Positions 2,541 through 13,323 of a stretch of 13,323 nucleotides of DNA are shown here, in pieces. Each line of letters starts with the position of its first letter. The first letter of the stretch is position 1. The stretch is taken from the NCBI GenBank assembly GCA_964354495.1, contig CAYHAA010000030.1, positions 1 through 13,323 of the forward strand, read 5' to 3'. Under the pieces are notes generated by a model that was not told the DNA's origin, made no database searches, and saw only the letters and a list, made by a program, of their open reading frames with translations. The translations under genes and the position numbers were made by a program. Source of the DNA: an uncultured archaeon (GTDB lineage: Archaea > Asgardarchaeota > Thorarchaeia > Thorarchaeales > Thorarchaeaceae).

Positions 2541-2955
2541 TACTTCTTTCCTTCTACCAACTCTTGGGATTGAAGTAGAGAGAGAAGTGGTGCAGACTCT
2601 TTCAAAGATTAACCACGAACAGACTCAACTGTTCTACTCGGACTGGAGTCTACTTGAGAGTAGCTGGGTAGTACTACGACTGATCAGACAGAAGAGGTAT
2701 GAAGAACCAGTCTATCGAAGAGGCCTTCTGAGCATAACCAAGACCCATGTCTATGATGCCGTTGCGATGAGCCCGGACGATTACCTGACCGCCATTAGAT
2801 TCTTTCAGAAGGGGCATCCAGACATGATTGACAATCTGTTGTATGCTGCTGCTCTTAGAGAGGGGTGTCATTTTCTCACATTTGATGGGGAACTCTCACG
2901 CTTCATCTCGAAAAATGACATCGAGAATGTTATACTAACTCCGAAGAACATCTGA
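2503..2955 (+). CDS. vapC: PIN-domain (VapC-like) toxin
   Basis: ILLDTSFLLP, SLLES, DNLLYAAA, FLTFDGEL; TTG start, exact start uncertain. Confidence 0.85.
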   Translation: MKNSQSTRKILLDTSFLLPTLGIEVEREVVQTLSKINHEQTQLFYSDWSLLESSWVVLRLIRQKRYEEPVYRRGLLSITKTHVYDAVAMSPDDYLTAIRFFQKGHPDMIDNLLYAAALREGCHFLTFDGELSRFISKNDIENVILTPKNI

Positions 2956-2968
2956 GCAGATTCAGCTA

Positions 2969-3078
2969 GGCCACTCTTGATAAGAGAATGAGAGGGTGGC
3001 TCAACAACGAGCAGCAAGAGCAAGTTCCCTGACTTGGCGTCGGGGCAACCCGTGTTTTGTACCGCGTCCTCCACTGAT
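2969..3078. repeat. Repeat copy R3 (diverged core, shortened left motif, no right module)
   Basis: ggccact...aatgagagggtggctcaacaacgagcagcaagagcaagttccc...gtaccgcgtcc aligns with the R6/R7 core. Confidence 0.9.
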
Positions 3079-3165
3079 TCTGTTCCATATGAATAAAACA
3101 CATAGGCACTTTTTTATGCCATGTTCAAATGTTGGTAATGAAAACAGAAGGACTGAATTAGCATC

Positions 3166-4437
3166 ATGCATAGCCAAGGAGTAGATATCTTTGGTAATGA
3201 ATCAGGAATTGCAGAGCAATCAAGACATGTTGTGTTGTTAGGTGCGTTAACTTTCCTAACTATATCGGCAGCCGCGATGCTTCATGTGAATCAGCCAGAG
3301 TTCATCTTAGACCGCTTTATTGGCATCACAGAACTTGAGTACACATTTTTTGACAGCACTTTGTACATTTCGTACATTGTCGGTGGATTGTTGACAGGAG
3401 CATTATCTGATCGACTGGGAATACGTAAGCCATTCGTGATTGTAGGAACATTCGGATCCGCGCTTTTCTATTGGCTGATGACAATCACCTTGGATTATCC
3501 ATTACTTCTCATGTACAGGTTCATACAGGGTTCCTTCACGGTCATGGTGTGGCAGGTGTTTATGACCATCGTACTTGATATTTCTTGGCCACATAATCGT
3601 GGAAAGAACATAGGCATCTTCTCGACATTTCTTGCCTTGGCAATGGGAGCAGGACCAGTACTAGGAGGAATAATCGCGGCTGCTGGTGTGTTTATGCCCT
3701 ACTACACTGCGACCGTGTTGAACCTCATCGTACTGGGAATAGCAGTTCTTGCTCTCAGAGAACCATTAGTGACCAAAAAACGTCCAGACTTTGTACATAG
3801 TCTAACAATTGTGACACGGTTGCCAAAGCTAATAATACCCGGAGTTTTCAATCTCATCGACAGACTCCATATTGGCTTTATATTGACTGCTTTACCATTG
3901 TTTCTCTCTTTGGTTCTAGGCTTATCACAGGCGTTAAGAGGAGTAGCATTAGGTATCTTTGCACTGCCTTTTATCTTGCTGCAATATCCTATGGGAAAGA
4001 TGTCGGATAGGTATGGGAGGTATCCTCAGCTGATATCAGGCAGTGTCGGGTTTGGAGTTGTGTTATCATTCTTTGGTTATTTTGGCGGTTATGGATTTTC
4101 AGCTGTCCTCATCATGCTTGCAGTGATGGGATTACTCAATGGCGTGACTTCGCCTCCTTCACTAGCATTGGTCGGTGATGTCGCAAAGACAGAAGATACA
4201 GCAATGGCTACAGGTTTCTTTAGTTTTATGGGAAACATAGGTATCGCAATTGGCCCGTTACTATTCGGATATCTGATTTTCACAACAGATTTCATAATTG
4301 CATTTCTAGCTGTCGGACTATTAGAACTGTTGACACTATTCTTGAATATAGTTCTAATCAAGGCCGTTTTTCATGAGAAACTCCTACCTTCTAGTGGACA
4401 CAGGTCGATTACTGTTGAGGACCTCGAGATCTCTTAA
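3166..4437 (+). CDS. Major facilitator superfamily transporter
   Basis: 423 aa with about 12 hydrophobic segments; MFS motif A twice (GALSDRLGIRK, GKMSDRYGRYP). Confidence 0.93.
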   Translation: MHSQGVDIFGNESGIAEQSRHVVLLGALTFLTISAAAMLHVNQPEFILDRFIGITELEYTFFDSTLYISYIVGGLLTGALSDRLGIRKPFVIVGTFGSALFYWLMTITLDYPLLLMYRFIQGSFTVMVWQVFMTIVLDISWPHNRGKNIGIFSTFLALAMGAGPVLGGIIAAAGVFMPYYTATVLNLIVLGIAVLALREPLVTKKRPDFVHSLTIVTRLPKLIIPGVFNLIDRLHIGFILTALPLFLSLVLGLSQALRGVALGIFALPFILLQYPMGKMSDRYGRYPQLISGSVGFGVVLSFFGYFGGYGFSAVLIMLAVMGLLNGVTSPPSLALVGDVAKTEDTAMATGFFSFMGNIGIAIGPLLFGYLIFTTDFIIAFLAVGLLELLTLFLNIVLIKAVFHEKLLPSSGHRSITVEDLEIS

Positions 4438-4634
4438 ATTGCTTTTATCTGTTACATAAGTAATTGCTATTTCGGAAAGATCAGGAGTTTGAAGCCATTT
4501 CTGGCTACTACTAATGTTCTCTTGGTAATTATCTCACCACGGTATTGTTACTATAATAAGAATGGATCGAAGATTGTTATCTGACTTGCAAAGATTGGAG
4601 AATCGAATTGTGGAATCATTTGTAGTATGATTTA

Positions 4635-4704
4635 TGAGAAATGAGATCGTGGCTCGACAATGTGAGGCTAGGGAAAGGTCACTGATGACCCGACCCCGTC
4701 AGCC
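4635..4704. repeat. Repeat copy R4 (minimal, most diverged short-core copy)
   Basis: tgagaaatgagatcgtggctcgac...tagggaaaggtcactgatgacccgaccccgtcagcc; shares aaatgaga, gtggctc, taggg and cccgaccccgtc with R2 and the other copies. Confidence 0.75.
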
Positions 4705-4729
4705 TATATCCCTGTCCATCCAAGGGAGT

Positions 4730-5011
4730 CTATTCCAGCCACTTGTAACCTTTGCTTCTATGGATTATTTCAGTGACTTGGACATCATGACCTATTACGA
4801 AGCAGATTGCTCTGTAATCACCAATACGCAATCGGAAGAGAGGCGGTTCATCATGAGTGATGAGTTTCTTGATGTCGGCCCCAGAACGTCTTCGAAAAGG
4901 ATTTTCTTCCAATTCTTGTAGACTAGATTTGATTCGACTCTTCTGCTTGAAGTCCAACAGGCCCAATTGAGCCACTGCAGTCTTGGACAAGAAGACCCTA
5001 TACTTGGTCAA
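4730..5011 (-). CDS. relE: RelE/ParE-family toxin
   Basis: YRVFLSKTA...LQELEENPF...IKKL...FRLRIGDYRAI...HRSKGY; likely TTG start at 5011 overlapping the antitoxin stop (the ORF-track start at 5083 lies inside the antitoxin). Confidence 0.9.
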   Translation of the reverse strand: MTKYRVFLSKTAVAQLGLLDFKQKSRIKSSLQELEENPFRRRSGADIKKLITHDEPPLFRLRIGDYRAICFVIGHDVQVTEIIHRSKGYKWLE

Positions 5012-5195
5012 GGGGAACGAACTCCTCTTCTTCGAGAATTCGTCTCTGTCTTCTGGCAAATTCAATCTGCTCTGCCATCTCAAGAAGGCGGCGGATTAGC
5101 TCATCATAGGTCTCTCCCTTCTGACCGTATCTCTTCAATAGGTCCCGGGTTTCCTTTGATAAGGGAATTGTAGTCGTTTCGCGCACATCTATCAC
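4998..5195 (-). CDS. Small archaeal antitoxin (RelB-like position)
   Basis: 65 aa; TTIPLSKETRDLLKRYGQKGETYDELIRRLL is a ribbon-helix-helix-like archaeal antitoxin pattern; directly upstream of relE. Confidence 0.82.
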   Translation of the reverse strand: MIDVRETTTIPLSKETRDLLKRYGQKGETYDELIRRLLEMAEQIEFARRQRRILEEEEFVPLDQV

Positions 5196-5263
5196 GACTT
5201 ATAGTGTTGATAGTTACTTATGACTTCATAGATTTGATAGTGAAAAATCGAGCACCAATGGAA

Positions 5264-5409
5264 AATCCACTCATTTGTGAAAACGGGTAAAAATGAGAAG
5301 GCGGCTCAACAGCCGCAGCAAGAGCAAGTATCTGCCGTGCTTCGGGCAACCTGAACGATTGGACCGCGTTCCCCGTCGAAGGCCCGTACTTCACTCACTA
5401 TCCCGAAGG
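5264..5409. repeat. Repeat copy R5 (core + right module truncated at the cgaa loop)
   Basis: aatccact-N16-taaaaatgagaaggcggctcaac...ccgcgttccccgtcgaaggcccgtacttcactcactatcccgaagg. Confidence 0.92.
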
Positions 5410-5422
5410 TTTTTTCTAAGCT

Positions 5423-5659
5423 TCACAATAAGCGTAAGAATTCCTCTTTCGATAGTCCACTCTGTTTGATGATTGAGAGAAGTGTCCCCTTTGGAATCGG
5501 GTTCCTATGAGGGATAATAATAAGATATGGTCGATTATCGGTATCATATCTGACAAGGGCGATGTGGCTACCTTTTCCTCTCACAGGAGCATATTGAAAA
5601 CCAGCCTTGAGTAACCTCCGGATTAGCTTCGTACTGCTAATCTGAGGCAGTTTACTCAT
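5423..5659 (-). CDS. hicA: HicA-family toxin
   Basis: KLPQISSTKLIRRLLKAGF...RGKGSHIAL...IIIPHRNPIPKGTLLSIIKQSGLSKEEF; start set at MSKLP (5659; 5665 also possible). Confidence 0.92.
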   Translation of the reverse strand: MSKLPQISSTKLIRRLLKAGFQYAPVRGKGSHIALVRYDTDNRPYLIIIPHRNPIPKGTLLSIIKQSGLSKEEFLRLL

Positions 5660-5704
5660 TGACATCACTGTGTGCCAGCTATAACGACCATGCAAATCTA
5701 GGAC

Positions 5705-5941
5705 TTAGACATTGATCTCAATCGTACGTGTGGACTTCTCAGAGGCAGTCATCATCGGGAGATACTCATCTATGACCCCAAGCTCACGAGCATTGACAAG
5801 CCAGAGCTCTATTGCCTCTTTGAGATTGGCCAGAGCCTCATCTGCGGTATCACCTGCTGATGATACATCAATCTCGGGACATTTGGATACATAGGTCCCA
5901 TCTTCTTCCCATACAACAGCAGTGAATTTTACTTTCATCAT
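5705..5941 (-). CDS. hicB: HicB-family antitoxin (short, UPF0150-like)
   Basis: FTAVVWEEDGTYVSKCPEIDVSSAGDTADEALANLKEAIELWL; upstream of hicA. Confidence 0.9.
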   Translation of the reverse strand: MMKVKFTAVVWEEDGTYVSKCPEIDVSSAGDTADEALANLKEAIELWLVNARELGVIDEYLPMMTASEKSTRTIEINV

Positions 5942-6107
5942 CGTATACTACCATCCGAAGGTTATGAATTAAACTCTTTCATCAATGAGAATTCGGATTA
6001 ACTCTCTACGTTGTAGTTAGAAACGGTCAATATTAACTACTACCAACCAATGTATGATTCATGTTAAAACGAAGCAGGAGAGGTCTTCCATTAAGATAGT
6101 TAATAGA

Positions 6108-6260
6108 GAGTCCACTGAATTAGAAAAGCAAGTGAAAAATGAGAGGGTGGCTCAACAGCGAAGAGCACGAGCAAGTTCCCCACTTTGGCATCGGGCAACC
6201 TGACGATTGCACCGCGTTCAACGTCGTCCAAGGTCAGTGCTTCGCTTACATTCCGAAGAC
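6108..6260. repeat. Repeat copy R6
   Basis: gagtccact-N16-tgaaaaatgagagggtggctcaac...gcaccgcgtt; diverged but alignable through aaggtcagtgcttcgcttacattccgaag. Confidence 0.92.
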
Positions 6261-6510
6261 GGTTGCTGAAAATGCAGTCCTTTTTGTTGGAACACATCCA
6301 CACTCCCAAAGGCGTTACCATTCTTAGAGTGAAGGAAAGGATCTTTGGTATTATTGTTAGGTTTCTATCAAATTCCGAAGTGATTCAGACCTTTGCGTTA
6401 TGGGCTAGATAGAGCTTGACTTCAGGTGCGGAAAAAGTGGTTGTATTCTGATTGAAGATTGTAGTATCTATGGTCGATTGGACAAAATATGATTACTTCA
6501 TCCACAAATA

Positions 6511-6557
6511 ACATGTTTTATCCATGTCTTTATATCGTGTTGAATGGATATTCATGT
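6511..6557 (+). promoter_or_regulatory. Putative TA promoter flanked by an inverted repeat
   Basis: TTTATAT at 6529-6535 lies between ACATGttttATCCAT (6511-6525) and ATGGATattCATGT (6544-6557); 38 nt upstream of ATG 6573. Confidence 0.6.
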
Positions 6558-6572
6558 AGGGTGTTCATCTTG

Positions 6573-6812
6573 ATGGTTCGAGTTCGAATGGATGGCCAAC
6601 GACGCATCAGAATCCCAAGGAAGGCCGGAGTGGAAGGAGATACATTCCTCCTCCTCGCTCTTGGATCATATCACATTCTCTTTCCTGTTCCCTCTGAGAA
6701 ACCAGAACTGGATATCGAGGGACCAATAACAGAGCTTCTTTCACAGGCAGAAGTGGAGATTATTAGAGATGTGACCGAGAGATGGAGGAGGAAAGACCAA
6801 GATGCTGATTGA
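6573..6812 (+). CDS. AbrB-like antitoxin
   Basis: MVRVRMDGQRRIRIPRKAGVEGDTFLL resembles an AbrB N-terminus; start reassigned from 6489 to 6573 because the TATA box lies at 6529; overlaps the PIN gene. Confidence 0.72.
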   Translation: MVRVRMDGQRRIRIPRKAGVEGDTFLLLALGSYHILFPVPSEKPELDIEGPITELLSQAEVEIIRDVTERWRRKDQDAD

Positions 6813-7218
6813 GAATGACATGATCTTGGCATTCTATAAGAGAAACGACCACCTAAAACCACTTGCCACTCGTCTATTCTCAAGAATTGAACAGGGTGAT
6901 TTCGGTACAGTCGTTATACCTAGTGTCTTTTCGATTGAGCTCTACTATATCTTAAGATGCCTCACTGGTGTGACTCCAGTTCGAGATGTTATAAGCCACC
7001 TCATTACATTTCCCAATTTATCAATAATTCCTTCCACTATTGATCATCAATTGGCAGCCTTGTTCCTCCTAGAGAATTACCAACTAGAATCTATCTTTGA
7101 TGCAGTCTATGCCGCAGTATCACTCAGTGATGACAACCCAGACCACACGATCATCTCTACAGATCATATCTATGATAGAATTGAGGGCTTGACAAGGCTC
7201 GATCCCACCAGTATTTAG
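6802..7218 (+). CDS. vapC: PIN-domain (VapC-like) toxin
   Basis: MLIEND, SVFSIEL, IFDAVYAAV, IISTDHIYDRIEGL. Confidence 0.83.
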   Translation: MLIENDMILAFYKRNDHLKPLATRLFSRIEQGDFGTVVIPSVFSIELYYILRCLTGVTPVRDVISHLITFPNLSIIPSTIDHQLAALFLLENYQLESIFDAVYAAVSLSDDNPDHTIISTDHIYDRIEGLTRLDPTSI

Positions 7219-7227
7219 TGAACTGCA

Positions 7228-8466
7228 ATGAGGAATAAATCTCGCATGATGAACTTGATTACCTTCAGAGTATCCAGAGTCAGTTGCAGGCTCAGCGTTT
7301 CGCTGATACTGATCCTACTTGGATTTGCATACTCAGGTCTGCCTATGGCCTCTACCTATGTAGCAAAGATAGAGCCTGCACAGACTCAGACAACAACATG
7401 GATATCCCTTGAAACCGACTACCCAGAGGCAAAATTCTATGATGTTGAGTTCATCAATTCCTCTCACGGATGGGTCGTTGGATTATTGTACTCCAACACA
7501 TCTTCGGGCGGAATCATCCTTCACACAGAAACCAGTGGAGATACATGGGACACCCAACTTACTGATGATGCGCAAATATTCTATCAATTAGAAGTGGTGA
7601 ATGAACAAACAGCATGGGTGACCGGACTCGGTCGTCTCTACTTCACGAATGATAGTGGAGAGTCATGGTACACCTCTCTTGTGGGGAATAATCGCCTGTC
7701 TGGAATGAGCATGGTTGAGTTCCTCAATGAAACCCATGGATGGACTGCCACGATGCAGATACTATTCAGAACGACGGATGGTGGGCAGACATGGCAGAAT
7801 GTAACTGGTTGGACGTTCGATGACCATCCTTCGGACATGCAGTTCTTGACCGACTATGAAGTATGGGCGATTGGTTCTGACGGTATCTACCATAGTGACG
7901 ATGGCGCGGAAACTTGGGAGATGGTCTTTGATAAGGGGGGCTGGAGCCTATCGTTTCCAAACGAAGACGAAGGGTGGGCTGCGAGTCATAAATACTTCTT
8001 CCATATGAAGCAAGACCATACGTGGGAAGAGATTGTCATCCCCGGAAGACTTCCTTCATTTCGACTCTTATCTCCATATTGTTCAGATATACAGTTCATT
8101 GATGACGAACACGGATGGATTGTAAGCAGTGAGATTCCTATAATGCACACGCCGAACGGTGGAAGCAACTGGTATGAACAATCAGTTCCCGCGGATAGAG
8201 GCGGTCTCATGATGGCTGTCTGTTTCATTGATGAGTTGCACGGGTGGGTAGTGGGAAGCGATGGCTGTATTCTTAGAACCTCTACAGGAAACAATCTTGA
8301 CGCACTTCTCCTCTCCGGTCAAGAGGATCTTCTATTGATCGTTTTTGGAGCCACTGGAGTCGCAATCGTGCTGCCCGTCGGTCTGATTATTCTTCGTTGG
8401 AGAAAGCGGAGAATTCACGCCACTCAAACAGTTGGAGATTTGAAATTGGTTCCTGAGCTACCATGA
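7228..8466 (+). CDS. Membrane-anchored BNR/Asp-box (Ycf48-like) beta-propeller protein, paralogue 1
   Basis: N-terminal hydrophobic signal; repeated HGWVVG and TxDGGxTW units; C-terminal TM helix followed by RWRKRR. Confidence 0.85.
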   Translation: MRNKSRMMNLITFRVSRVSCRLSVSLILILLGFAYSGLPMASTYVAKIEPAQTQTTTWISLETDYPEAKFYDVEFINSSHGWVVGLLYSNTSSGGIILHTETSGDTWDTQLTDDAQIFYQLEVVNEQTAWVTGLGRLYFTNDSGESWYTSLVGNNRLSGMSMVEFLNETHGWTATMQILFRTTDGGQTWQNVTGWTFDDHPSDMQFLTDYEVWAIGSDGIYHSDDGAETWEMVFDKGGWSLSFPNEDEGWAASHKYFFHMKQDHTWEEIVIPGRLPSFRLLSPYCSDIQFIDDEHGWIVSSEIPIMHTPNGGSNWYEQSVPADRGGLMMAVCFIDELHGWVVGSDGCILRTSTGNNLDALLLSGQEDLLLIVFGATGVAIVLPVGLIILRWRKRRIHATQTVGDLKLVPELP

Positions 8467-8556
8467 CATGATTGTCTGTCTTGGTGTGATACTTGACATA
8501 GTAGCAAACTTGTTAGGGAGAACAGACAAGAAGCTACCACTCAGAAGATAATTAGA

Positions 8557-8815
8557 AAGTCCACTCATAATAATAGATGAATGAAAAATGAAAAGGGTGG
8601 CTCAACAGCGAACAGCAAGAGCAAGTTCTCCACTTTGGCATCGGGCAACCTGACGATTGCACCGCGTTCCCCGTCGAAGGCCCGTACCTCTCTTGCATTC
8701 CCGAAGGACTGCAAGACCAAGCTGCTTCTACCTCTATGAGATAGAAAACAGAGGAGGTGAGTGATGGAAGACGAGATGACTCTCGTCTTCTTCCATCCGC
8801 AGCTTCTGCTACGGA
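8557..8815. repeat. Repeat copy R7, the only complete copy in the window (about 260 nt)
   Basis: aagtccact-N16-tgaaaaatg + core + all right-module hairpins ending at gctacgga. Confidence 0.96.
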
Positions 8816-8908
8816 ATGAGCTCTTCAATTACAAATGCTGATGGGCTTGACTTGATCGCTCCAGAGTTCACAAAGTTCTCGTTCCAAAACAGCATCTTCA
8901 CTTTATTA

Positions 8909-9328
8909 TTAGTACACAAGTTGACAAAGACCTGCAAAGTCAGAATCAAATGTGGCCAGATATCCAACATCATTAGCATCAATGAATGATAGAATGCAAC
9001 AATCGGTGAAGCTCAGGGGTCTCTCAGGCCACCTGGCAAAGCGTTCCCATTTCTCCCACGCGAGGTCTAGGACTCTGGGTGTTATGTATTCAAACTTGAT
9101 GAACTCGGGAGTACCACGAACAAGCTCGTAAGCCTTTGTCACCGCACTCTTTTGGCGGGTATGTATCCAGAGGGTCGTGAGCACTTCGTCTAGGACATAG
9201 TCAATCGTGAGCCTCATTCCATACTCTTGGTCCTTAAGCTTGGTAAGAAGCTCTCTCGCTTTTGGATGATTTCGGTCTCGCGTGTTCAGCAATGCAATGA
9301 CGACATTACTATCTATGAGGACAGTCAT
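8909..9328 (-). CDS. vapC: PIN-domain (VapC-like) toxin
   Basis: VLIDSNVVIA, DYVLDEV, SFTDCCIL, LATFDSDF; 4-nt overlap with the upstream ORF. Confidence 0.9.
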   Translation of the reverse strand: MTVLIDSNVVIALLNTRDRNHPKARELLTKLKDQEYGMRLTIDYVLDEVLTTLWIHTRQKSAVTKAYELVRGTPEFIKFEYITPRVLDLAWEKWERFARWPERPLSFTDCCILSFIDANDVGYLATFDSDFAGLCQLVY

Positions 9329-9618
9329 GTAGAGTCACCGCCGTATACCACATCATCCACTCTCGATGAGAGTTCTTCACTCCCAGGTCCCAAGTCCTCT
9401 GCCAAGGAAAGGACTTTCTGAATGATATCATCACCCAGAGGATAGTCCATCAATCGCACCTCATTAACTATGAGATCATAGTTCTCAAGACCGATTCTGA
9501 ACACGATCTCTAGTATCTCCTTCTTTGTCAGACGCTTTCGTGTCTCCAGATATAGACGTGCCTGCAACTCTTCTAGGTCATCTTTAAGATCGAATTTCAC
9601 CGTGGACACTGATAACAC
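9325..9618 (-). CDS. Putative antitoxin (VapB position)
   Basis: 97 aa, acidic C-terminus, coupled to the PIN gene; minus-strand TTTATAT at 9650-9644 about 26 nt upstream of the GTG. Confidence 0.7.
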   Translation of the reverse strand: MLSVSTVKFDLKDDLEELQARLYLETRKRLTKKEILEIVFRIGLENYDLIVNEVRLMDYPLGDDIIQKVLSLAEDLGPGSEELSSRVDDVVYGGDST

Positions 9619-9687
9619 CCAGTAACTGAGTCACCAGGACACCATATAAACTTGTAGAGTTCTCCACTTCCAGTGGTGAAAGGGAAA

Positions 9688-9875
9688 GAGTCCACTGAGT
9701 CTGATTGATGATTGAAAAATGAAAAAGGGTGGCTCAACAGTGAACAGCAAGAGCAAGTTCCCCACTTTGGCATCGGGCAACCTGACGATTGCACCGCGTT
9801 CCCCGTCGAAGGCCCGTACCTCTCTCACTGTCCGAAGACCGTGAGCCAAGCTGCTTCTACATCTATGAGATAGAA
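9688..9875. repeat. Repeat copy R8 (right module truncated after the second hairpin)
   Basis: gagtccact-N16-tgaaaaatg...ccgtacctctctcactgtccgaagaccgtgagccaagctgcttctacatctatgagatagaa. Confidence 0.95.
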
Positions 9876-10119
9876 GACACTATTCAGTGGGTGCTTAAAT
9901 TGAACGTACCAAGAATGAGGAGAATGAGCATTGCTTCAGCTCAACATGCCAACACGAACCCTAGCTTGTTCGGGAACCAATTGGCTTAAAACAAGGAGAG
10001 TCTATCACAAAACACACTGACTTCGTGATTAGGTATCGACTGTCTTGAATTGTATCACCAAAAGGAAACGCTGCGCATGCCTGTTCACGTAGTCAGATAT
10101 TCGTGGTTAGGAGTCGAAA

Positions 10120-11967
10120 ATGGTGAATTCAAAGAGAGCAATATTAAGCATATTATTAATTCTGATAATGATAACACCAGTTGTTGGTGTCGGCAATCTC
10201 AATCCTTCGCATGAACCAGCACTTTTGATTTTGAAAGCAGAGTCTGGGGATGCCAGTATCGATGTCGGAGTCAAAAATCTAAGACTTGGTCTGCGTGACA
10301 CAGTATCTGATGTGAGAGTAAGATATCTAGAAAGGCTGGACACACTTGACGCAAATGGGGAGTACCTCATTATTATAGGTCATGGATTTCCAGAGGGGCT
10401 TGAAATCAATGGAAGGACAATACCTTGGGAGGAACTCTATGCAGCCATAAGAAGAGCTGGTCCGGAAAGGGCTTTTGTTCTAGCATGTTACTCACCGGTT
10501 GATGAGGAGATCATTGGGTTCAATGCTCCAATTGATGCAAAAGCTGGGGCGATTCTAATATCTTGGCTGATATGTAGCTCTTTGAGACCAGAAAAGCAAT
10601 CCAGTTTTCCTATCGAAGATGCAATAACAGCTCAAAGGGACATGAGAAATCCTTTGAATCGATACGTGTACTTTGTACATGGATACTTTGGGTCTAATGC
10701 AGACTTTGACACAATGGTTGATAGATTCGGAGACGAGAATATTTTAACAAGCTATTCTGAAATAAAATATTTCGGCTACTGTGAGCACTATGGTTTGGAA
10801 TTGCCACAGGATGTCTTGCTAATTGATGCAATGCACCAAATCACAACGATTTCTGCTTATGCCAATGATTTTGCCGACGAATTATACGATCTGCCATCTG
10901 GTTCACATGTATCTATAGTAGCTCACAGTATGGGTGGGATAATCACGAGGGAAATGCTTGGGCTTCACAGAGCTGATCTTGACGCTGCAGGAATCTGGAT
11001 TGACAAGGTCATCACACTTGGTACACCAAATCTAGGAACATGGCTTGCCAATCCGATACAGCCATGAGCGGTAATCCTGACACTGATTGGTGGAATCCTT
11101 AATTTCGGTCAATTTTGGCCCAGCCTAGTCTTTTACTCGTTGAATCCACTGTCTCTCCTAATGTACAATCTAAATGCAGACCCCATAAGTTACTCCTATG
11201 GTATAGAGTGGTATACAGCCGCGGGATATGACCCCGTAATGAGCATCCTTACCTATCCAATACACTTCGATCTAAGCGATCCATTGGTTGCGGTCGGGAA
11301 AGCACACCTCTCGTTCCTTGGCGTGGAAGAGTCAGTGACGTATGACGGAATTGATCATATAGGACTCATTCAGAACTCCGATCCAGCTGGAACATTCTCT
11401 GATGTCTGCAGCTGGTTATGTTCAGGCGACGATTACGATGGAGACGGACTGACTGATGATGCTGAACTCTATACCTGGGGAACCAATCCTTATGACACTG
11501 ATAGCGACAATGATGGTCTCTCGGATTACGAGGAGGTCGTTGATTATAAGACCAATCCAAACAACCCAAACACGGATGGTGATGCAATTAATGATGGCAC
11601 TGAGATCGCTTGGAACTATGACCCTCTGGACAGTTCAAGTCCAATTCAGGCATCTTCACTGATCCAGAGTATGCAAATATACAGTGGTTCGATAATGTCA
11701 GTGACGGCAAGTAGCTTGACAGGGGTCACCAAGGTACTGTTCTATGCACAATACAAGGACTATTATGGCACATGGACATCCTATCAACTCATAGGCACGG
11801 ACTCCTCATCGCCATTCGTCAAATCATGGGTTATTCCTGCAGGCTATGTTGCGATTAGGGTCAAGGTAGAAGCATATAACTCAGGTAATGTCTATTTAGG
11901 TTGTGATACTGCGTACATGACCCTGGGTGGCGGCGGTGGTGGCGGCGGCGAGCCTGTACCTTATTGA
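10120..11967 (+). pseudogene. Secreted alpha/beta-hydrolase (lipase-like) with Ca-binding DxDxDG repeats, interrupted by one in-frame TGA at 11065-11067
   Basis: The 10120-11067 and 11140-11967 ORFs share a frame with only the TGA between them. VHGYFG, VAHSMGG and TLGTPNLG precede the stop; candidate catalytic D (DPLV) and H (DHIGL), the DYDGDG/DSDNDG/NTDGD repeats (about 11428-11631) and a Gly8 tail follow it. Confidence 0.75.
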
Positions 11968-11989
11968 TGGCGTATTCAAAACCAATCCT

Positions 11990-13201
11990 ATGAGGAAAAC
12001 ATCGCACATGATGAACATGATTCCCCTCCGAACATTCAGACCCGGCTACAGCCTAAGTGTTGTGCTCCTGCTGACCCTACTTGGATTTGCATACGCAGGT
12101 CTGCCTATGGCTTCTACCTATGCAGCAAACATAGAGCCTGCACAGACTCAGACAACAACATGGATATCCCTTGAGAACGATTACCCAGAGGCTATATTTC
12201 GTGATGTCGAGTTCATCAATTCCTCTCACGGATGGGTAGTGGCAGGTGGTATTATCCTTCACACAGAAGACGGTGGAGACTCCTGGGAAACCCAGCTCGC
12301 TGATGATTCACAGGCATTCCGACAGCTAGAAGTAGTGAATGAACGAACAGTATGGGTGACTGGGCTCGGTTGTCTCTACTTCACGAACGATAGTGGAGAG
12401 TCATGGCATACCTCAGTTGCTTACAGTAGTCTGTCCACTATGAGTATGGTGGAGTTCTTCAATGAAACCCATGGATGGACTGCTACAATGCAGATGCTGT
12501 TCAAAACGACTGACGGTGGGCAAACCTGGCAGAATGTGACTGGTTGGACGTTCGACGATCATCCTAAGGACATGCAGTTCTTGAATGAGTATGAAGTATG
12601 GGCGATTGGCTATGACGGTGTCTACCATAGCGATGATGGCGCGGAGACCTGGGAGAAGGTCTTTGATAAGGGAGGCTGGAGCCTATCCTTTCCGAACCAA
12701 GACGAAGGGTGGGCCATCAGTGATGGCTACCTCTTCCACATGGAGCAAGACCATACGTGGGAGGAGCTGGCTGTTCCCGGAAGACTTCCTTCATTTCGGC
12801 TCACCCCTCCATATTCTTCAGATATACAGTTCATTGACGACCAGCACGGATGGATAGTAGGCGGTGAGATCCCTGTAATGCACACGCCAAATGGCGGAAG
12901 CAACTGGTATCAACAATCAGTTCCTGCTGACATAGGGGAACGTATGATGGCTGTCTGTTTCGTTGATGAGGTACATGGGTGGGTAGTGGGATACGATGGC
13001 TGTATTCTCAGAACCTCTACAGGAGGCAATCTTGATGCACTTCTCCTCTCCGGTCAAGAGGACCTTCTACTGATCGCTCTTGGAACCGCTGGAATAGCAA
13101 TCGCACTCACTATTGGTATCCTTGGTCTTCGTTGGAGAAGACGAAGGATTCGCGCGACTCACACAGGTATTGATTTAAAATCGACTCCGGAGATACTCTA
13201 G
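11990..13201 (+). CDS. Membrane-anchored BNR/Asp-box (Ycf48-like) protein, paralogue 2
   Basis: Colinear with 7228-8466; start reassigned to ATG 11990 (MRKTSHMMNMI vs MRNKSRMMNLI). Confidence 0.87.
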   Translation: MRKTSHMMNMIPLRTFRPGYSLSVVLLLTLLGFAYAGLPMASTYAANIEPAQTQTTTWISLENDYPEAIFRDVEFINSSHGWVVAGGIILHTEDGGDSWETQLADDSQAFRQLEVVNERTVWVTGLGCLYFTNDSGESWHTSVAYSSLSTMSMVEFFNETHGWTATMQMLFKTTDGGQTWQNVTGWTFDDHPKDMQFLNEYEVWAIGYDGVYHSDDGAETWEKVFDKGGWSLSFPNQDEGWAISDGYLFHMEQDHTWEELAVPGRLPSFRLTPPYSSDIQFIDDQHGWIVGGEIPVMHTPNGGSNWYQQSVPADIGERMMAVCFVDEVHGWVVGYDGCILRTSTGGNLDALLLSGQEDLLLIALGTAGIAIALTIGILGLRWRRRRIRATHTGIDLKSTPEIL

Positions 13202-13291
13202 CATTTTCATCGATTATGACGCGATGTTTGGCGAGGTACGAGATCTTTTGGAGAGAATCAAGAAAAGACTCCCTCTCAGATGACAAATAGA

Positions 13292-13323
13292 GAGTCCTCT
13301 AACAAGAATGGATGATTGAAAAA
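13292..13323. repeat. Start of repeat copy R9 (cut by window edge)
   Basis: gagtcctct-aacaagaatggatgat(16 nt)-tgaaaaa has the same motif and spacing as R1/R6/R7/R8. Confidence 0.75.

Follow-up and report, generated by a model that had tools for sequence, protein, structure and literature searches.

A putative orphan copy of the 16S rRNA 3' trailer in place of an attC site at the cassette joints of a Thorarchaeaceae array

The 79-nt element at positions 8601-8679 of the DNA studied here, which an earlier note had described as attC-like, is very probably an orphan copy of the 16S rRNA 3' trailer, that is, of the 3' strand of the helix formed by the trailer and the 5' leader. Homology of this hairpin, here called R7, to attC is not upheld; judged from sequence, a trailer origin takes its place. 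The window, 13,323 nt in length, is the entire contig C30 of a metagenome-assembled genome (MAG) of 3.3 Mb that is 97.7% complete. This genome encodes the archaeal ribosomal protein L31e and a eukaryote-like actin at 415 bits, fitting an Asgard archaeon. A literature search returned no account of arrays of 16S-trailer copies that act as cassette joints.

Alignment of the repeat units to the 16S ends of congeners identified the minus strand of the window as the rRNA-sense strand. On this strand, R7 and two further units of the window, R0 and R2, can be aligned with the true 16S locus of five congeners (G012, G017, G005, G042 and G015), from the 3' end of 16S (..TCCGTAGCGGAAGCTGCGGATGGA / TCACCTCCT) through trailer and core as far as the oligo-T run. 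As in a pre-16S trailer, the sequence is continuous on the same strand with the mature 16S 3' end (..GGATCACCTCCT). In the genome itself, positions 12776-13014 of contig C31 differ from window positions 8577-8815 by 4 mismatches, so that the orphan R7 is 98% identical to the true trailer over 239 nt, and the R7 core at 8599-8682 is 100% identical to the core of that true trailer. The block of identity begins at window position 8577, and beyond the matched block C31 runs into ~300 nt of the genome's own 16S rRNA gene, inside which the contig ends. Taken together, the trailer alignments and the match on C31 indicate that the minus strand is rRNA-sense, that the array ends at a 16S gene and that R7 is a near-perfect orphan copy of the trailer. 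The C31 copy lies directly 3' of the 16S gene, whereas R7 does not: it has cargo on either side and no leader partner nearby, and with C31 placed after C30, ~17.8 kb would separate it from the 16S gene. A 16S gene adjoins the repeat array in all five congeners in which both are assembled. An Rfam scan of the window returned no match at E<=1, the copies of the 16S end being too short or too interrupted to score, and an Rfam search for small-subunit rRNA in the genome overlooked the 300 nt of 16S with which C31 ends.

Nine copies of the repeat family lie in the window in one shared orientation. The genome's other copies are found only at the end of C17, which overlaps the start of C30, and on C31. 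The array thus delimited has at least 18 units across C17, C30 and C31 and ends at the genome's own 16S gene. In a full unit, the final ~33 nt of 16S, into which 31 nt are inserted, are joined to the trailer and its local hairpins; the core comes next, and an oligo-T run precedes the distal box.

In R7, all parts are assigned to the minus strand. The core (8599-8682), of a long type with a branched middle, is interpreted as an orphan 3' strand of the pre-16S processing helix on the basis of the alignment to true trailers, its fold and leader cofolds of the homologous true cores. At one end of the core lies box 1, or junction zone 1 (8577-8607), which reads GTTGAGCC on the minus strand followed by ACCC and by T4 and T5 runs (A5 at 8584-8588 on the plus strand) and is nearly invariant across the genus. 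At the other end lies box 2, or junction zone 2 (8663-8689; CCCCGTCGAAGGCCCGTACC on the plus strand), where joints and loose ends of public contigs fall. According to the alignments, the proximal trailer copy follows at 8683-8751 with two local hairpins, one of which has a cUUCGg loop on the minus strand. Trailer-copy hairpins with this loop are also present on the minus strand at 44-110, 2058-2125 and 9815-9879, and their stems vary between copies with pairing kept (TTGCA/TGCAA versus TCACA/TGTGA). Alignment and folding place a copy of the last ~33 nt of 16S rRNA (..TCCGTAGCAGAAGCTGCGGATGGA / TCACCTCCT), interrupted by the 31-nt hairpin insert, at 8752-8815.

The 31-nt insert is a perfect hairpin at 8761-8791, situated between GGATGGA and the anti-Shine-Dalgarno sequence TCACCTCCT. 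It is also present in the true 16S 3' end of the genome (C31, ~12960-12990) and of G015, and it is absent from G012, G017, G005 and G042. Compared with G012, the 16S 3' region of the genome carries another insert of ~30 nt. On the far side of box 1, the distal box of R7 (AAAGTCCACT on the plus strand) and most of a 16-nt variable stretch occupy 8556-8576, as delimited by comparison within the repeat family. The distal layout, conserved AGAGTCCACT followed by 16 variable nt and TGAAAAATGA, recurs at 8556-8590, 1061-1093, 6107-6139, 9687-9719 and 13291-13323. The distal box travels with the left-hand cargo; it follows the true trailers of G012 and G042 and is missing from the true trailer of the genome itself.

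The other units of the window, all on the minus strand, differ in how much of the full unit they retain. R0 (1-179), inside which the contig starts and which overlaps the end of C17, comprises the right half of a core and a full 16S-end module, and R2 (2002-2189) combines a short core (2002-2057) with a full 16S-end module. Long cores with a truncated trailer copy are found in R5 (5303-5409) and R6 (6149-6260), and a long core with a partial trailer copy in R8 (9731-9879). R1 (1104-1187) is a core of the long type with AGCG/CGCT, R3 (2998-3082) is a long-type core with a degenerate box 2, and R4 (4651-4707) is a short, chimeric core. The last positions of the contig, 13291-13323, hold a distal box and the first part of the following unit.

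The conserved and variable parts of the core can be understood from predicted pairing with the 16S leader. We cofolded a 260-nt 16S leader with the trailer for four genomes (G012, G005, G017 and G042), the genome's own leader not being in the assembly. In all four predicted cofolds, both arms of the core pair with leader positions -161 to -104, which run from GGCTCAAC to CCCCGTTACGCC, and only the middle of the core makes local trailer hairpins. At the true locus, box 1 is predicted to pair with GGCTCAAC of the leader, and the minus-strand complement of box 2 with CCCCGTTACGCCTGTAC. Since the prediction for the true locus has both arms paired with the 5' leader, the core would correspond to the 3' strand of the pre-16S processing helix. 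Three of the four cofolded genomes have almost identical leaders but different core types. According to this model, the conserved outer boxes (GACGGGG... and ...GTTGAGCC on the minus strand) would be the segments that pair with the conserved leader, and the middle, which has its own stem, would be free to vary. Outer boxes that must pair with the leader around a middle that is free would account for the attC-like layout. Similarly, the G-T pairs of the minus strand would be RNA G-U pairs inherited from the rRNA precursor, given that the boxes pair with the leader.

The layout of the leader segment resembles that of the plus strand of a core, GGCTCAAC ... CCCCGTTACGCC (L076, 1340-1397; also L074, L073 and L075). 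Based on this layout, leader and trailer could each self-fold, a four-way alternative to the long helix.

Folding of the repeats agreed with much of the earlier description of the hairpin itself. The minus strand of R7 had been read as a hairpin that pairs from end to end; the sequence at 8599-8682 is as quoted there, and its minimum-energy fold contains GAC/GTT, GGGG/CGCT, AAC/GTT and a bulged T. The R1 arm has AGCG instead of GGGG, as described, and the alignment indicates that its other arm changes (AAC to AGC and GAC to GAT) still pair through G-T. Likewise, the short copies keep the outer ends and vary in the middle, with GGCTCGAC...GTCAGCC in R4 and GGGCAA/TTGCCC in R2.

The proposal that folding is strand-specific held for RNA energies and failed for DNA energies when both strands were compared with shuffled sequences. 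As DNA, the minus strand of R7 folds at -13.9 kcal/mol (z -0.76) and the plus strand at -9.9 kcal/mol (z +0.47). This single copy is unremarkable as DNA, since 49 of 200 shuffles of the minus strand were equal or better. As RNA, the minus strand reaches -33.0 kcal/mol (z -1.71, 13 of 200 shuffles) and the plus strand -18.8 kcal/mol (z +0.95). We gathered ~90 sites from 25 of the 28 genomes of the genus and folded both strands of the 58 that are distinct and well delimited. With RNA energies, the minus strand is the more stable one in 86% of the 58 sites, by a median of 5.1 kcal/mol (p 1.7e-9), with a mean z of -1.25 for the minus strand versus -0.48 for the plus strand. With DNA energies, 52% of the same sites favor the minus strand and the median gap is 0.15 kcal/mol, with mean z values of -0.55 (minus) and -0.69 (plus). 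An asymmetry of the RNA (G-U) kind is what an origin of the boxes in leader-pairing rRNA segments would leave behind.

For 19 short-type sites from several genomes, RNAalifold returned an end-to-end consensus on the minus strand, in which 94.7% of the alignment cells are paired, versus 46-65% with slid partners. Four of the six outer consensus pairs are G-U pairs, which would be C-A on the plus strand. Covariation among these 19 sites is modest, with 4 pairs changed on both sides, a number equaled by 17 of 500 shuffles. A MAFFT alignment of all 44 short sites gave merely a 4-bp helix because different core types are out of register in it, and it was replaced by the type-restricted alignment.

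The cargo between the copies consists of blocks of 1-3 genes. In the window these encode a SAM methyltransferase, MazE-PIN, an MFS transporter, ParE, HicAB, more PIN toxins, two BNR/Ycf48-like paralogues and a DUF676 hydrolase. The two BNR/Ycf48-like genes (7228-8466 and 11927-13201) share ~81-85% DNA identity, and each closes a multi-gene block. These paralogues either recombine or are confused in assemblies, since a public contig joins position 7498 to 12244. In G012, a BNR/Ycf48-like homologue is the first cassette behind the 16S gene. On C17, cassettes with LVIVD and GNAT genes are in synteny with G012, in which one additional cassette separates the two, and the genes upstream of the array encode POR, MFS and MBL-fold proteins. 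Within or close to the distal part of the array, C17 also has three ORFs (2922-3815, 13978-14904 and 15059-16399), 297-446 aa long, that match nothing in Pfam.

Cassettes differ between species and populations and are shuffled between genomes. Among pairs of sites, cargo is shared on the left side alone in 18, on the right side alone in 37 and on both sides in none; 21 further pairs have the 16S gene on the right. We also placed contigs of four public DNA runs on the window, and some of these join units that are not adjacent in it: 2986 to 6138 (with 20 ambiguous bases), 5370 to 8670, 3050 to 8653, and 13293 to 8577. Cargo shared on one side only and public contigs joining non-adjacent cassettes both bear out the earlier suggestion that the copies sit at cassette joints.

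The breakpoints of these exchanges are concentrated in the pair of conserved boxes; full units also have them inside the 16S end. This clustering is partly a matter of visibility, as breakpoints are seen only where the flanks differ. In pairs with the same left cargo, identity drops directly after GGCTCAACA. In pairs with the same right cargo, agreement starts at the GGCTCAACA box in some and at CCCCGTCGAAGG or farther right in others. Loose ends of the public contigs fall in the box 1 zone at 8577, 8592, 6134-6136 and 1116, and in the box 2 zone at 8671 and 8689 and at the equivalent positions 6218 and 9795. The earlier note had asked whether crossover falls at CCCC/GTC. A cluster within a few bases of this position exists (5370 to 8670, 8671 and 6218), but a second zone lies at the opposite, GGCTCAAC end, and with joints and loose ends of public contigs at both ends of the core, CCCC/GTC is one breakpoint zone among others. 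One precise crossover inside the invariant ~25-nt box 1 may be compatible with the breakpoint data. Three-way SNP mapping of one cassette indel, comparing the genome with two sites (A and B) of G012, put the switch between a GAGAGGG stretch and CCTTACG, with very few informative sites.

Chimeric cores are present, and within the window right modules are joined to different core types. The identity of the core middle is 0.48 between sites with the same left cargo and 0.62 between sites with the same right cargo, compared to 0.56 for random pairs between genomes. An identity of 0.8 is reached by 64 of 267 pairs within genomes versus 20 of 600 pairs between genomes. Based on these figures, the core is homogenized per genome and is not carried by the cassette.

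Searches for a recombinase that could act on the repeats covered MAGs, in which a gene on an unbinned contig, a plasmid or a virus would escape. With this scope, the 97.7% complete genome has 0 matches to TIGR02249 (IntI) and to PF00589, and tblastn of relatives' recombinases against it found nothing. In the 41 genomes searched, comprising the genome and 40 relatives, 24 of them congeners, no match exceeded the IntI cut-off, and just 3 of the 24 congeners have weak tyrosine-recombinase matches. PF00589 is absent from four of the five array-bearing congeners; the fifth, G015, has three copies, all on contigs other than that of its array. A tyrosine recombinase domain was detected in 14 of 14 control genomes, whereas the genome studied here is without even an Xer-type enzyme. 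No Y1 HUH transposase was found, and serine recombinases occur in this genome only, where they are IS607-like and encoded on C22 and C24. TnpB-like genes are present in the genomes without being universal, and the genome has 16 matches. One TnpB/Cas12f-like ORF of 580 aa is located inside the array on C31 (~6342-6545, minus strand). The array of G012 is internal to a contig of 120 kb, with the 16S gene on one side of it and ordinary genes on the other.

With modest confidence, we favor a route of cassette exchange in which orphan trailer copies are combined with homology-driven recombination and gene conversion between units. The orphan copies would offer stretches of homology or recognition where cargo could be inserted, deleted or swapped, most likely through homology-driven recombination and gene conversion between units and not through an integron-type reaction on folded single-stranded DNA. 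Gene conversion between units would also homogenize the cores within a genome. This route would be the simplest account of several breakpoint zones, chimeric cores, homogenization per genome and the lack of a dedicated recombinase. Two considerations speak against it. Homologous recombination between direct repeats should also erode arrays, and the proximal end common to full units is sharp, agreeing to within ~6 nt at CTACGGA/TACCTT, so that it resembles a defined att boundary more closely than random homology.

The main rival explanation is tandem accretion of integrative elements whose att site copies the 16S 3' end and trailer and which use a yet-to-be-found site-specific recombinase, possibly in trans. 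Integrative elements pile up at the ends of tRNA and tmRNA genes in a similar manner. Accretion would fit the co-orientation of all units, an array that starts at a gene end, and units with a common distal end and a varying reach toward 16S, which form a ladder of truncated units; it would also fit the termination of full units within ~6 nt of one another inside 16S. The true 16S 3' ends of the genome and of G015 carry the 31-nt insert of the unit type, as if replaced by an element copy, and the elements HeimM2 and HeimV2 are located at the 16S flank of Heimdallarchaeum (PMC8813620). On the other hand, at least two to three breakpoint zones are seen, not one, and the middles of the cores are genome-specific and do not travel with the cargo. 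The recombinase searches also argue against accretion: they detected no Y1 HUH enzyme, serine recombinases in the genome alone, and no tyrosine recombinase either there or in four of the five congeners with an array. We consider accretion rather unlikely as the explanation of the array.

It is improbable that the orphan units are kept chiefly for a role in RNA or transcription, with cassette exchange as a side effect. In such a role, a hairpin and oligo-T run could form terminators or insulators of rRNA-sense read-through, or the units could give rise to small RNAs that pair with the leader. Consistent with this are the RNA-type strand asymmetry, the T5 run that directly follows the minus-strand core in almost every unit, the cUUCGg loops, whose stems vary, and the high conservation of box 1 across the genus. 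A new function is not needed to explain them, however, since the true trailer passed on all of these features, and many of the units have been truncated or have degenerated.

There remains the comparison with attC. The attC sites of integrons are strand-specific hairpins with extrahelical bases and variable terminal structures, and one end of the core fits the attC end motifs in either reading: GCTCAAC on the plus strand fits RYYYAAC, and GTTGAGC on the minus strand fits GTTRRRY. The other end, GTCGAAG / CTTCGAC, has GTC/GAC instead of GTT/AAC. With DNA energies, the predicted folds of the 58 sites are not strand-selective. The site does not travel together with one cassette, and there is no single R' crossover (G/TT). 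An integron would have an intI gene, encoding a tyrosine recombinase with an IntI-specific extra domain, and attI at the head of the array; neither was found. The plus strand was also considered as an integron top strand with intI upstream on C17; no integrase is encoded there, and the 16S gene was found at the other end. With homology to the 16S trailer, predicted pairing with the leader, an asymmetry of the RNA type, two breakpoint zones and no tyrosine recombinase, the interpretation of R7 as an attC-equivalent substrate of single-stranded DNA is not supported.

Integrons and integrase-less clusters of attC sites (CALINs) were reported in MAGs of Asgard archaea including Thorarchaeia (Ghaly et al. 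2022, PMC9668308), and the motifs of the site were not found in the accessible supplement text of that report. A true noncanonical attC in an archaeal CALIN, whose folded single strand is recombined by an IntI encoded elsewhere, would agree with that report, with cargo typical of chromosomal integrons, with the fit of one end to RYYYAAC and GTTRRRY, and with the architecture of the core (inverted boxes on the outside, an unpaired spacer, a stem farther in, a middle that varies and, on the minus strand, a 3' arm with a bulged base), but it is highly improbable because 16S-trailer homology accounts for the boxes, DNA folding is no better than in shuffles and has almost no strand bias, the opposite box has GTC/GAC and not GTT/AAC, breakpoints fall at both ends of a site that does not move together with a cassette, and no IntI exceeds the cut-off in the genome and 40 relatives (24 of them congeners), most congeners being without any tyrosine recombinase.

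Given the trailer origin, the cassette joints of a genus-wide gene-exchange locus in Asgard archaea are copies of the flank of the rRNA gene itself. The flux of accessory genes is thereby tied to an essential, single-copy and highly conserved locus. This raises the question of how cassettes move in genomes without a detectable tyrosine recombinase, even of the Xer type. As a tentative possibility, the genus may have an integrase-free system of gene capture that employs the sequence of the 16S processing stem as a universal docking site, through either an unrecognized recombinase family or a directed homology route. In that case, cassettes would be inserted, swapped and homogenized right behind the cell's only assembled 16S gene, and some of the archaeal CALINs in the literature may be such 16S-trailer arrays. 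In view of our findings, surveys of archaeal MAGs in which structure is the sole basis for calling attC sites deserve caution. For the biology of Asgard archaea, the findings point to a hot spot of horizontal gene exchange that holds toxin-antitoxin modules and other accessory genes.

By comparison with known systems, the array is of the kind of cassette arrays, or of accretion at the ends of stable-RNA genes, in a variant with 16S-trailer copies as joints. As in the archaeal pre-16S processing stem, which leader and trailer build on the two sides of 16S and which serves as the substrate of precursor processing, core and flanks are homologous to the true trailer and both arms have the 5' leader as their predicted partner in four congeners; unlike that stem, R7 is an orphan and belongs to a set of at least 18 copies with accessory genes in between. 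Tandem integrative elements are known at the 3' ends of tRNA and tmRNA genes, for example, the tycheposons of Prochlorococcus. The array shares with these elements blocks of cargo bounded by partial copies of a stable-RNA 3' end, in one orientation and starting at the gene. It differs from them in that the target is the flank of 16S, no dedicated recombinase was found, and the repeats are up to ~240-270 bp long and homogenized within genomes.

In Heimdallarchaeum, the mobile elements HeimM2 and HeimV2 reside between the 16S gene and a tRNA-Arg gene (Wu et al. 2022, PMC8813620). In both cases, an Asgard archaeon has mobile DNA immediately behind its single 16S gene. HeimM2 and HeimV2 are single, tRNA-adjacent elements of 8 and 44 kb, one with a homing-endonuclease-like gene (PMC8813620), whereas the array described here is composed of multiple units of trailer copies. 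Finally, the array resembles attC arrays and CALINs, including the long Vibrio cholerae repeats known from sedentary chromosomal integrons, in that imperfect palindromes of the same orientation bound cassettes of 0.5-3.5 kb that are rich in toxin-antitoxin genes, and in having conserved outer boxes, a variable center and one box that fits RYYYAAC/GTTRRRY. It is set apart from attC by its origin in an rRNA flank, the GTC/GAC triad, the lack of a folding signal at the DNA level and the lack of co-inheritance with a cassette, and from integrons and CALINs by breakpoints at both ends, by searches that found no IntI and no attI, and by an array that begins at the 16S gene.
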